This document shows positions 9,333-23,692 of a DNA stretch of 64,000 nt, one piece after another (within the stretch, counting starts at the first letter, position 1; each line of letters opens with the position of its first letter). Source of the stretch: Escherichia coli (GTDB taxonomy: Bacteria; Pseudomonadota; Gammaproteobacteria; Enterobacterales; Enterobacteriaceae). The stretch lies in the NCBI RefSeq assembly GCF_044324785.1, contig NZ_CP172127.1. One strand, 5' to 3'. The notes under the pieces were generated by a model, which saw nothing but the letters and a program-made list of their open reading frames with translations, searched no databases and was not told the origin of the DNA. Made by a program: the position numbers and the translations under genes.

Positions 9333-11696
9333 ATGAAAACGCTGAAAAACTGGACCCTGCACAAACAGTCTGCCCACCACGTTGAACTGCTGGTCGATGG
9401 CCAGCATATCCTGTGCCTGTACGTGCTGGAAGAAAATCTGTTCCGCGTGCTGTTAAAACGCAAAGGCGAGCTGGCGCTGGATCGCACCTGGAGCATTGCT
9501 CCGGCGCAGGATGTGCCATGGGAAGGGCGCAGCCGCGAAGATCTCAGCGGCTTTAGCCTGCCCGCGTGGACATTGATCCAGCACGACGACACCGTGGTTA
9601 TCGCCACCGAGTCACTGCGTGTCACCGTTCACCAGCCGCTGTGGCTGGAGTGGCACTATCGTAACAACGAAGGCGAATGGCTGCCGTTGGTGAATGACCG
9701 CCCGACCAGCGCTTATCTGCTGAATGCCCACGGCGATGGCGTGGCACACTATCAGAGCCGTCGTAAAGATGAACGCTTTTATGGCCTCGGAGATAAAGCC
9801 GGCGACCTGCAACGCAACGGTAAACGTTACGAGATGCGTAACCTCGACGCGATGGGCTACAACGCCGTTAGTACTGACCCGCTGTACAAACACATTCCAT
9901 TCACCATCACCCGCCGCGATGACATTAGCTTCGGCCTGTTTTATGACAACCTCAGCAGCTGCTGGCTGGATCTGGGCAACGAGATCGACAACTACCACAC
10001 CGCCTATCGCCGCTGGCAGGCGGAAGCGGGTGATATCGACTACTACCTGTTTACCGGCGAACGCGTACTTGATATCACCAAAGCCTTCGTACGCCTGACC
10101 GGAAAAACCCTGTTCGGACCGAAATGGAGCCTGGGCTACAGCGGTTCAACTATGCACTACACCGATGCGCCGGACGCACAAAATCAGTTGATGAACTTTA
10201 TCCGCCTGTGTGAAGAACATGCAATTCCCTGCGATTCGTTCCAGCTCTCTTCCGGTTATACCTCAATTAACGGCAAACGCTATGTGTTCAACTGGAACTA
10301 CGACAAAGTGCCGCAGCCGAAAGTGATGAGCCAGGCATTTCACAATGCTGGTTTGCACCTGGCCGCCAATATCAAGCCGTGCCTGTTGCAGGATCACCCA
10401 CGCTATAACGAAGTGGCAGAAAGAGGACTGTTCATCCGTGATTCAGAAACAGATGAACCAGAACGTTCCAGCTTCTGGGATGACGAAGGTTCTAACCTCG
10501 ACTTTACTAATCCGCAGACCATCCAGTGGTGGCAGGAAGGCGTGACCACACAGCTTCTGGAGATGGGTATCGACTCCACCTGGAACGACAACAACGAATT
10601 CGAAGTATGGGACGGTGAAGCACGCTGTCACGGCTTTGGTCAGACGATCGCGATCAAACATATTCGCCCAGTGATGCCACTGCTGATGATGCGAGCCTCG
10701 ATGGAAGCCCAGCAGCGTTTCGCTCCGGAAAAACGTCCGTACTTGATCTCCCGCTCCGGCTGCGCGGGAATGCAGCGCTACGTGCAGACCTGGAGTGGCG
10801 ATAACCGCACTAGCTGGGACACTCTGCGCTACAACACCCGCATGGGTCTGGGGATGAGCCTCTCCGGGTTGTATAACCTCGGTCACGACGTCGGCGGTTT
10901 CTCCGGTGATAAACCGGACCCGGAACTGTTTGTACGCTGGGTACAAAACGGCGTGATGCATCCGCGCTTTACGATTCACTCATGGAACGATGACCATACC
11001 GTAAACGAACCGTGGATGTATCCGGGCGTCACTCCGGCGATCCGCAGCGCTATTGAGTTGCGCTATCGCCTGCTGCCCTACTTTTATACCCTGATGTGGC
11101 AGGCATACGCCGATGATGAACCAATGCTACGTCCGACTTTCCTTGACCACGAGCACGACGTTCAGACTTTTGAAGAGTGTGATGACTTCCTGCTTGGTCG
11201 CGATATTTTGGTTGCCAGCGTCGTAGAGCAAGGCGAGCGCCAGCGCCGTGTATGGCTGCCAGATAACGAAACTGGCTGGTACGATTTCTACAACGGCGAA
11301 TGGTTCAGTGGCGGTCAGTGGATCACCCTCGACGCACCGCTGGAGAAACTGCCGCTGATGGTGCGTGCCGGGGCTGGTCTACCGCTCAGCAAACGCATCA
11401 CCTATGTGAGCGCAGAACAAGACGATACCCGCGAACTGAAACTGTTCCCGCTGAAAGGTGTGGGCACAACGTCCGGCCTGCTGTTTGAAGACGATGGCGA
11501 AAGCTGGGGCTACCAAACTGGTAATGCGCTTTGGGTGGAATGGGAAATGGTTTGCGATGGGGCGACCATCAACCTGAAAGTCAACGCGCGCGGGGATTAT
11601 CGTCCTGCATGGAGTGCACTGAAAGTGTCATTACCATTGGAAGAAAAACGCACGCTGCTGGTCAATGGTGTTGAAGGGAGTGAATGGATGCGTTAA
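9333..11696 (+). CDS. glycoside hydrolase family 31 (alpha-glycosidase), specificity unknown
   Basis: ORF 9321..11696 (GTG at 9321 or ATG at 9333); GH31 motifs GIDSTWNDNNE (nucleophile region) and RSGCAGMQRYVQTWSGDNRTSW (acid/base region). Confidence 0.8.
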   Translation: MKTLKNWTLHKQSAHHVELLVDGQHILCLYVLEENLFRVLLKRKGELALDRTWSIAPAQDVPWEGRSREDLSGFSLPAWTLIQHDDTVVIATESLRVTVHQPLWLEWHYRNNEGEWLPLVNDRPTSAYLLNAHGDGVAHYQSRRKDERFYGLGDKAGDLQRNGKRYEMRNLDAMGYNAVSTDPLYKHIPFTITRRDDISFGLFYDNLSSCWLDLGNEIDNYHTAYRRWQAEAGDIDYYLFTGERVLDITKAFVRLTGKTLFGPKWSLGYSGSTMHYTDAPDAQNQLMNFIRLCEEHAIPCDSFQLSSGYTSINGKRYVFNWNYDKVPQPKVMSQAFHNAGLHLAANIKPCLLQDHPRYNEVAERGLFIRDSETDEPERSSFWDDEGSNLDFTNPQTIQWWQEGVTTQLLEMGIDSTWNDNNEFEVWDGEARCHGFGQTIAIKHIRPVMPLLMMRASMEAQQRFAPEKRPYLISRSGCAGMQRYVQTWSGDNRTSWDTLRYNTRMGLGMSLSGLYNLGHDVGGFSGDKPDPELFVRWVQNGVMHPRFTIHSWNDDHTVNEPWMYPGVTPAIRSAIELRYRLLPYFYTLMWQAYADDEPMLRPTFLDHEHDVQTFEECDDFLLGRDILVASVVEQGERQRRVWLPDNETGWYDFYNGEWFSGGQWITLDAPLEKLPLMVRAGAGLPLSKRITYVSAEQDDTRELKLFPLKGVGTTSGLLFEDDGESWGYQTGNALWVEWEMVCDGATINLKVNARGDYRPAWSALKVSLPLEEKRTLLVNGVEGSEWMR

Positions 11697-20377: not shown

Positions 20378-21025
<648 letters not shown>

Positions 21026-21354
21026 ATCCATCGCTGATGGTGCAGAACTTTAGTACACGATAAAAGCGGCTTCCTGACAGGAGGCCGTTTTGTTTTGTAG
21101 CCCGCCTCAACGCACTTATTTAGTGCATCCATCTGCTATCCCCAGCTGGTTAAGTAAATTTTTTGTATCCACATCATCACACAATCGTTACATAACGATT
21201 GTTTTTTCATCAGGTTTTACGCTAAATAATCACTGTGTTGAGTGCACAATTTTAGCGCACCAGTTTGGTGCCCCAGAATGGTGCATCTTCAGGGTATTGC
21301 CCTATAAATCGTGCATCACGTTTTTACCGCATCTCGATAAATCAATGAGTTGCA

Positions 21355-21376
21355 AAACTGGCACGATTTTTTCATA
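21355..21376 (+). promoter_or_regulatory. sigma-54-type promoter (glnHp2-like)
   Basis: TGGCAC at 21359-21364 followed by a -12-like element about 50 bp upstream of glnH. Confidence 0.5.
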
Positions 21377-21413
21377 TATGTGAATGTCACGCAGGGGATC
21401 GTCCCGTGGATAG

Positions 21414-22175
<762 letters not shown>

Positions 22176-22195
22176 TAACGCTACGCCTGTAAAGC

Positions 22196-22258
22196 GCACT
22201 GGCAGTTCCCTCTCCCCTCTGGGGAGAGGATTAGGGTGAGGGGCGCAAACCCGCTCCG
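22196..22258 (+). repeat. GC-rich intercistronic stem-loop / repeat-like element between glnH and glnP
   Basis: cctctcccctctggggagagg forms a 9-bp stem with 3-nt loop, followed by gggtgaggggcgc. Confidence 0.5.
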
Positions 22259-22313
22259 GGGCCATTAATTACCCTGAATTTGATTATTTACACCACGGTA
22301 ACAGGAACAACAT

Positions 22314-22973
22314 ATGCAGTTTGACTGGAGTGCCATCTGGCCTGCCATTCCGCTTCTGATTGAAGGTGCCAAAATGACCCTGTGGATTTCGGTCCTCGGT
22401 CTGGCTGGCGGCCTGGTGATCGGATTGCTGGCAGGTTTTGCACGCACCTTCGGTGGTTGGATAGCCAACCACGTCGCGCTGGTCTTTATTGAAGTGATCC
22501 GCGGCACACCTATCGTCGTCCAGGTGATGTTTATCTACTTTGCCCTGCCGATGGCGTTTAACGACTTACGCATCGACCCGTTTACTGCGGCGGTGGTCAC
22601 CATCATGATCAACTCCGGCGCGTACATTGCAGAAATCACGCGTGGTGCGGTGCTGTCTATTCACAAAGGTTTTCGTGAAGCAGGACTGGCGCTCGGTCTT
22701 TCACGTTGGGAAACCATTCGCTACGTCATTTTACCGCTGGCATTGCGTCGTATGCTGCCGCCGCTGGGTAACCAGTGGATCATCAGCATTAAAGACACCT
22801 CGCTGTTTATTGTTATCGGCGTGGCGGAACTGACCCGTCAGGGGCAAGAAATTATTGCCGGTAACTTCCGCGCCCTTGAGATCTGGAGCGCCGTGGCGGT
22901 GTTCTATCTGATTATTACCCTGGTGCTGAGCTTTATTCTGCGTCGTCTGGAAAGAAGGATGAAAATCCTGTGA
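22314..22973 (+). CDS. glnP: glutamine ABC transporter permease
   Basis: 219 aa polar amino acid ABC permease. Confidence 0.9.
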
Positions 22974-23692
22974 TTGAATTTAAAAACGTCTCCAAGCATT
23001 TTGGTCCAACCCAGGTGCTGCACAATATCGATTTGAACATTGCTCAGGGCGAAGTCGTGGTGATTATCGGGCCGTCCGGTTCCGGTAAATCGACCCTGCT
23101 GCGCTGCATCAACAAACTGGAAGAAATCACCTCCGGCGATCTGATTGTCGATGGCCTGAAGGTTAACGATCCGAAAGTTGACGAGCGCCTGATTCGCCAG
23201 GAAGCAGGTATGGTGTTCCAGCAGTTTTACCTCTTCCCGCATCTGACGGCGCTGGAAAACGTCATGTTTGGTCCGCTACGCGTGCGTGGCGCGAACAAAG
23301 AAGAGGCGGAAAAACTGGCGCGTGAGCTGCTGGCGAAAGTCGGCCTGGCAGAACGCGCTCACCACTACCCTTCCGAGCTTTCTGGTGGTCAACAGCAGCG
23401 TGTGGCGATCGCACGCGCGCTGGCGGTGAAGCCGAAAATGATGCTGTTTGATGAACCGACTTCCGCTCTTGACCCGGAACTGCGCCATGAAGTGCTGAAG
23501 GTTATGCAGGATCTGGCTGAAGAAGGGATGACGATGGTGATCGTGACACACGAAATCGGTTTTGCCGAGAAAGTAGCTTCGCGCCTGATCTTTATCGACA
23601 AAGGCCGGATTGCGGAAGATGGCGATCCGCAGGTGTTGATCAAGAACCCACCGAGCCAGCGCTTGCAGGAATTTTTGCAGCACGTCTCTTAA
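22970..23692 (+). CDS. glnQ: glutamine ABC transporter ATP-binding protein
   Basis: 240 aa; Walker [10 protein letters not shown]; signature LSGGQQQR; 4-bp overlap with glnP. Confidence 0.9.

Follow-up and report, generated by a model that had tools for sequence, protein, structure and literature searches.

The hairpin between glnH and glnP of Escherichia coli belongs to a BoxC repeat and coincides with a mapped RNA 3' end

Introduction

The spacer between glnH and glnP of Escherichia coli holds a short GC-rich hairpin, and the locus raises the question of what kind of element this is and what it does to the glnHPQ message. The window analysed here, a stretch of 64,000 nucleotides, corresponds to the E. 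coli dps-glnHPQ region, with glnHPQ on the plus strand downstream of dps and rhtA. In the K-12 record NC_000913.3 nothing is annotated in the glnH-glnP spacer, and no repeat feature is given. An earlier note, made from the letters of the window, had described a 9-bp GC stem-loop with a G-rich tail and had proposed that it either protects the upstream glnH message or partially terminates transcription.

Three bodies of published work bear on this question. BoxC is known as a short dispersed palindromic repeat of E. coli of about 50-56 bp, with 22-32 copies reported in K-12: the earlier literature gives a unit of 56 bp and 32 copies (Bachellier et al. 1999, cited in PMC2267715), and the supplementary FASTA file of Petrillo et al. 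2008 contains 22 K-12 copies (PMC2267715). Genome-wide, precise steady-state 3' ends of E. coli RNAs sit after stable stem-loops without U-tracts, to which PNPase and RNase II trim back (Dar & Sorek, PMC6061677), and the REP element between malE and malF is the classic precedent within an operon (PMC5927463). Finally, a Term-seq map of 3' ends in MG1655 under three growth conditions is available (Adams et al. 2021, PMC7815308).

The spacer hairpin is part of a BoxC repeat

The spacer contains an inverted repeat of 9 nt, CCTCTCCCC (22209-22217) and GGGGAGAGG (22221-22229), which is 100% complementary around a loop of 3 nt and is followed by a G-rich tail, gggtgaggggcgc, at 22234-22246, so that the stem-loop and the tail are present where they had been described. 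Folded in isolation, the hairpin had an energy of -18.3 kcal/mol, made up 93% of the ensemble and gave z=-2.6, with 2 of 200 dinucleotide shuffles folding as well. A z value of -1.97 was obtained for the whole 138-nt spacer and of 0.04 for the part downstream of the hairpin (22234-22313).

The two features had been taken as local ones; they are in fact two boxes of one inverted BoxC repeat. We made a covariance model (R1) from the 21 published K-12 BoxC copies that remain when eco:8 is left out; it matched the minus strand of the spacer over its full length (model positions 1-51 of 51, 55.6 bits, E=7.6e-12). The copy left out, eco:8_BoxC (TGCGCCCCTCACCCTAATCCTCTCCCCATAGGGGAGAGGGAACTGCCAGTG), is identical to the opposite strand of the glnH-glnP spacer in K-12 and is one loop base off the window. 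Box by box, the family arrangement CCCCTCACCC-TAA-tCCTCTCCCC-loop-GGGGAGAGGg-AACTGCCAGTG could be matched, and the other family features were found as well: a full-length consensus, a palindromic core of the type of a stem-loop of about 10 bp, several copies per genome, an extragenic position wholly inside the 138-nt spacer and an entry in the published catalogue. At the level of sequence, the hairpin and the G-rich tail are thereby shown to be a single BoxC copy. The features of the locus are collected in the table.

Table 1. Features of the glnH-glnP region in the window, and other BoxC and BoxC-like copies (coordinates of the window unless K-12 or a locus is given)
Feature	Position	Strand	Basis or remark
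glnH CDS, periplasmic glutamine-binding protein	21429..22175 (stop included)	+	ORF list; protein 100% identical to K-12 b0811
glnH-glnP intercistronic spacer, 138 nt	22176..22313	+	between glnH stop and glnP start
BoxC repeat element	22197..22247	-	inverted relative to glnHPQ transcription; covariance model and published catalogue
BoxC hairpin in mRNA, 9-bp stem CCUCUCCCC/GGGGAGAGG, loop UCU	22209..22229	+	inverted repeat and fold
RNA 3' end (equivalent of K-12 847200, minus strand)	22233	+	Term-seq, Adams et al. 2021 Suppl. file 1
G-rich box GGGTGAGGGG, complement of BoxC 5' box CCCCTCACCC	22234..22243	+	published-copy and covariance-model alignments
A/U-rich stretch between BoxC and glnP ribosome-binding site	22265..22297	+	predicted poorly structured
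Conserved block CACCACGGTAACAGGAACAACAT	22291..22313	+	79-species spacer comparison and Escherichia alignment
glnP CDS, permease	22314..22973	+	ORF list
glnQ, next after glnP	22970-23692	+	ORF list
K-12 BoxC copy after lldD, 3' end	3781065 (K-12)	+	BoxC forward relative to transcript; end 3 nt after stem
K-12 BoxC copy after yjbD, convergent with rluF, 3' end	4231270 (K-12)	-	BoxC forward relative to transcript; end 3 nt after stem
K-12 BoxC copy after ppiC, convergent with ilvC, 3' end	3959467 (K-12)	-	BoxC inverted relative to transcript; end 4 nt after stem
K-12 BoxC copy in cstA-ybdD intercistronic spacer, 3' end	632098 (K-12)	+	BoxC forward relative to transcript; end 10 nt after stem
BoxC-like element at 527-aa ORF site	L059:5732-5781, L070:5952-6002, L055:6085-6134	-	
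BoxC-like element at 527-aa ORF site	L062:6074-6122, L051:3298-3346, L081:6130-6178, L065:6144-6192	+	

A search for further genomic copies, which the earlier note had named as the way to recognise a repeat family, was positive. At the stringency set by a 28-Gb database, the 67-nt core has a median of 15 and a maximum of 30 matching places per E. coli genome. Within the 64-kb window the covariance model found no second BoxC, and there were short chance matches to AGGGTGAGGG only. Membership in this family is stronger evidence against a chance hairpin than the fold statistics. The Rfam scan of 20900-23100 at E<=10 gave hits at chance level only; the best one over the spacer scored 17.7 bits, where the gathering score is 40.

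Compared with the rest of the family, the copy in the window belongs to a minority with a perfect stem, having GGGGAGAGG where others have GGGGCGAGG and hence a mismatch; most published copies read GGGGCGAGGG, which gives one stem mismatch. Its linker is TAAT instead of TAAC and it is inverted relative to the transcript, with otherwise no structural difference. On the bottom strand, the BoxC consensus in alignment A2 (GGGGAGAGGGTTAGGGTGAGGGG) has four G-tracts in the form of a canonical G-quadruplex motif. All four are intact in the glnH-glnP copy of E. coli E69 (L005:59-109), and in the window and K-12 copies the second tract is only GG (window GGATTAGGG).

The spacer as a whole was found in 5401 of 5426 complete E. 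coli genomes at a coverage of at least 80%, mostly with 95-99% identity. It contains no plus-strand ORF of at least 20 aa. A small ORF or peptide as the function of the spacer was therefore rejected for the plus strand, and the ORFs on the other strand, which run antisense to glnH or glnP, appear to be spurious. The sigma-70 promoter scan of 21000-23000 gave no internal promoter for glnPQ.

Across genera, only the 3' end of the spacer is conserved, a C/A-rich block just before the glnP ATG (Table 1) that includes the Shine-Dalgarno sequence AGGA of glnP at 22303-22306. We take this block to resemble the CA-rich targets of the GcvB sRNA in other mRNAs for amino-acid ABC transporters.

One strain carries an insertion in this spacer. 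In E. coli B2.3 (NZ_CM185023.1), an IS21-like element, ISEc10 with istA/istB, lies between glnH and glnP (L082:38-2515) and parts glnPQ from the glnH promoters. Homology to the spacer of the window restarts within the left stem arm of BoxC (...CCCCGCCGGGGAGAGGATTAGGG), at about 22213, so that the IS must have been inserted into the BoxC hairpin.

An RNA 3' end lies directly after the hairpin

In the public Term-seq data a 3' end is mapped at K-12 position 847200 on the minus strand, which could be transferred to the window because the K-12 (locus L001) and window spacers are collinear. The last base of the stem is 4 nt and the glnH stop 58 nt upstream of it. The three-sheet file has three entries for 847200; two of the rows give 30,332 and 130,459 reads, and in the same two sheets the terminator of the neighbouring dps gene, at 848340, is listed with 89,018 and 681,605 reads. 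The printed sequence reads ...CCCTCTCCCCTATGGGGAGAGGATT[A]GGGTGAGGGG, the 3'-end base being character 51 of the printed 61-mer, a convention that was checked on the sgrS row. The G-rich box thus lies beyond the mapped end and outside the stable RNA. Adams et al. 2021 labelled this end 'orphan' only on account of its distance from the stop codon, which exceeds the 50-nt limit of their 'primary' class; it can now be identified as the end of the glnH 3' UTR.

The stem is directly followed by AUUAGGGUGAGGGG and not by uridines. The terminator scan of 22100-22400 gave no terminator-like site on the plus strand, the tail of the stem being ATTAGGGTGA, without a U-tract. Between 846900 and 847399, no Rho termination region is listed in the one bicyclomycin dataset consulted (Adams 2021, Suppl. 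file 2). A transcript species that ends at the BoxC hairpin is real. Of the earlier proposal that the hairpin either protects the glnH message or terminates it, the transcript end at the hairpin stands, and neither mechanism is singled out by it, Term-seq not separating termination from processing. In these parts the finding is already known: the repeat and its eco:8 copy are in the literature, and the table of Adams et al. lists the 3' end.

A separate Term-seq 3' end, with 47,250 reads, lies 53 nt upstream of the glnH ORF, at about 21376 (K-12 848057, minus strand), directly after TGGCACGATTTTTTCAT. This sequence looks to us like the -24/-12 element of the sigma-54 promoter glnHp2. Transcripts that start at a promoter further upstream may end prematurely here.

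Other BoxC copies and transcript ends

Curated Term-seq 3' ends were found at four other K-12 BoxC copies, 3-10 nt past the hairpin and with the repeat in both orientations relative to the transcript (Table 1); positions and strands of these four copies were upheld by the covariance model. Within co-directional gene pairs, RNA 3' ends at BoxC amount to two cases. The coincidence of five BoxC copies with mapped 3' ends suggests a testable function for a catalogued and so far unexplained repeat family. Full-text literature searches for an assigned function of BoxC gave only the Petrillo catalogue. The link between BoxC and RNA 3' ends was not found stated in the searchable literature, nor was the turnover of hairpin types at the glnH-glnP junction that is described below.

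A further Term-seq 3' end, at K-12 position 2945855 on the minus strand and outside the window, comes directly after TTTAGGGTGAGGGATAACCTCGCCCTTTTTAA. This hairpin is terminator-like and has arms similar to the boxes of BoxC (GGGTGAGGG / CCTCGCCC); it is possibly a terminator derived from the repeat.

Inverted pairs of BoxC occur as well. In K-12 such a pair lies between lldD and trmL (L083:2025-2073 on the plus and 2111-2161 on the minus strand), and in Enterobacter sp. kpr-6 an overlapping inverted pair is placed directly after glnQ (L053:11380-11428, plus; 11418-11466, minus).

Beyond E. coli, BoxC-like elements were seen in Enterobacter, Leclercia, Cedecea and Silvania, each 6-54 nt downstream of a stop codon. 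In Enterobacter and Leclercia one such element follows the stop of a shared 527-aa ORF at this same distance, in an orientation that varies by species (Table 1). From its size we presume the ORF to be ybiP-like. The opposite orientations at this site suggest repeated insertion or inversion at one place.

Hairpins at the glnH-glnP junction across Enterobacteriaceae

A protein-guided scan for GlnP gave 80 loci from different species of Enterobacteriaceae, from which 79 glnH-glnP spacers could be extracted. A stable hairpin is present in all 79; its energy ranges from -13.9 to -28.6 kcal/mol (median -19.7 kcal/mol). Against dinucleotide shuffles the whole spacers gave a median z of -2.53, with 59 of 79 values below -2 and none above 0; as the 79 spacers are phylogenetically related, such shuffle statistics overstate their independence, and about five distinct classes of hairpin are represented.

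The hairpins of these classes are, by their sequences, unrelated and non-homologous to one another. In 22 of the 79 spacers the hairpin is terminator-like, GGGGCG...CGCCCC, usually then followed by a T-rich run; the one of Buttiauxella passes the terminator scan. A further 37 spacers carry GCCCGG...CCGGGC palindromes, which we named REP-like from their form, and three more REP-like copies were found elsewhere in the Citrobacter loci. Klebsiella and Raoultella have long hairpins together with a terminator-like stem. The 232-nt spacer of Serratia sp. H1w (L079) holds an element CCCCAGGAGCTTAC...GTGACTGGGGTGAG, which we take to be ERIC-like. Intestinirhabdus alba (L031) has a spacer of 466 nt with a highly structured insertion. 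We count the Serratia sp. H1w and I. alba spacers as further cases in which repeats have colonised the junction.

Among the spacers examined, BoxC was present in E. coli only, namely in the window, in K-12 and in strain E69 (72.7 bits). Escherichia albertii, E. whittamii and the strain SCPM-O-B-8794 (L002), deposited as 'E. coli', have another palindrome, GCCCGGCAG...CTGACCGGGC, and no BoxC, and their spacers share with that of E. coli only the first 7 and the last 34 or so nucleotides. A palindrome-type allele segregating in E. coli was considered and rejected, 0 of 5426 complete genomes covering at least 80% of the L002 spacer; SCPM-O-B-8794 probably represents an outlying lineage. We also considered an insertion of BoxC into the loop of a REP, with the flanks CACTGGCAG and CTCCGGGG as remnants of REP-like arms such as those of E. 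albertii and L002. For the left flank we discarded this idea, since CTGGCAGTT is the conserved 3' tail of BoxC itself. The change from the palindrome to BoxC looks like the replacement of a segment and not like a simple insertion with target duplication.

That about five unrelated hairpin solutions are found at one junction argues that a hairpin after glnH is kept by selection, and the presence of a hairpin in all 79 related spacers fits a selected role. Across species the glnH-glnP junction is thus a place where structure is conserved and sequence is not.

Discussion

We regard the BoxC copy at glnH-glnP as a genuine but unremarkable element of an mRNA 3' end, similar to REP. We consider it rather probable that the BoxC hairpin acts as a barrier to 3' exonucleases and thereby yields a stable glnH message, in the manner of the REP element of malE-malF. 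Upon transcription of glnHPQ, the palindromic core of BoxC would fold into the 9-bp G+C stem-loop. An endonuclease cut, probably in the A/U-rich part of the spacer (candidate site 22265-22297) or in glnP, would open an entry for exonucleases, and 3'-to-5' exonucleases would then strip the downstream RNA and stall at the BoxC stem. The product would be a stable monocistronic glnH mRNA with a 3' UTR of 58 nt, ending 4 nt past the hairpin, beside the read-through glnHPQ mRNA. The glnPQ RNA would decay faster than the hairpin-capped glnH message, and the outcome would be an excess of binding-protein over permease message of the REP type known from malE-malF. Of this scheme, the exonuclease barrier, the preceding cleavage and the consequence for the GlnH:GlnPQ stoichiometry are what we infer.

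As with the REP/BIME stabilisers (malE-malF; PMC5927463, PMC6061677), a repeat-derived intercistronic stem-loop follows the gene for the binding protein of an ABC transporter, and an RNA 3' end lies just past the stem, without a U-tract and inside the operon. The sequence family is a different one, and on direct reading of its sequence the spacer has no REP-type palindrome. The glnH BoxC is therefore not a REP/BIME by sequence and may, by analogy, work like a REP stabiliser. With the protective 3'-end stem-loops of Dar & Sorek 2018 (PMC6061677) it shares a stable stem-loop directly before a precise end, without uridines, but those are gene-terminal and Rho-dependent, whereas the glnH BoxC is internal to an operon and has no listed Rho region. 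The terminator-like spacer hairpins of Kosakonia, Buttiauxella, Cedecea, Leclercia and others likewise start 16-35 nt past the glnH stop and have a similar stability of -15 to -19 kcal/mol; there, however, a T-rich run follows the stem, which the E. coli BoxC lacks.

Some points speak against the barrier model. In Dar & Sorek 2018, glnHPQ is in the set analysed for differential decay (S2) and is absent from the list of differentially decaying pairs (S3), and the repeats may simply accumulate in tolerant spacers. The absence from S3 would fit an abundance that is set by transcription and not by decay, as expected if the hairpin were a weak non-canonical co-transcriptional terminator or pause, that is an attenuator, with the end at +4 as a trimmed termination product. 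The strong RNA 3' end in E. coli is compatible with this, and from the terminator-like hairpins of the 22 related spacers, that of Buttiauxella included, partial termination may be the ancestral logic of the spacer. We nevertheless regard attenuation as unlikely. The glnH BoxC has the stem of an intrinsic terminator and no U-tract, the terminator scan found no plus-strand site, and the end, only 4 nt from the stem, comes earlier than it would with the usual tail of an intrinsic terminator. By the Adams 2021 list the site is not a Rho-dependent terminator either. The lack of a U-tract together with the lack of a listed Rho region favours protection over partial termination. In addition, 3' ends are seen at BoxC copies in both orientations and with differing downstream sequence, as expected if the stem alone matters.

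In another reading, BoxC is neutral or selfish and sits in a spacer that tolerates it; the 3' end would then be a by-product of any stable hairpin, with no selected effect. BoxC is dispersed and without an assigned function in the literature reached; the operon works without it in E. albertii, E. whittamii and the L002 lineage, where another palindrome takes its place, and one E. coli strain tolerates an IS21-family insertion within the hairpin. Against this stand its near-fixation in E. coli (5401/5426 genomes) and the absence of any hairpin-free spacer among the species examined. Neutral insertion alone would hardly produce this pattern, which suggests that hairpin was replaced by hairpin. 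We judge a purely neutral repeat to be improbable, somewhat more so than attenuation. Other E. coli repeats, the BIMEs, bind DNA proteins, and the four G-tracts of the consensus bottom strand would allow for a role at the DNA level, as a putative protein-binding site or a former of a G-quadruplex or cruciform, that does not act through RNA. The second tract of the window copy is only GG, though, and the hairpin directly explains the RNA 3' ends at five copies, so that a DNA-level role appears very improbable.

A broader claim would be that the BoxC family consists of orientation-independent stabilisers of mRNA 3' ends and that selection maintains the presence of a hairpin at the glnH-glnP junction, with a type that changes from lineage to lineage (terminator-like, REP-like, ERIC-like, or BoxC as in E. 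coli). We hold this more tentatively than the barrier at glnH, at a little under even chances.

The findings require no new kind of mechanism. Two modest, testable points are added to what is known, namely the association of BoxC with RNA 3' ends and the turnover of hairpin types at this junction. On the exonuclease-barrier reading, E. coli would obtain a separate stable message for an abundant binding protein from a single promoter region. If the broader claim is true, BoxC would have a role, and small repeats would supply interchangeable regulatory hairpins.
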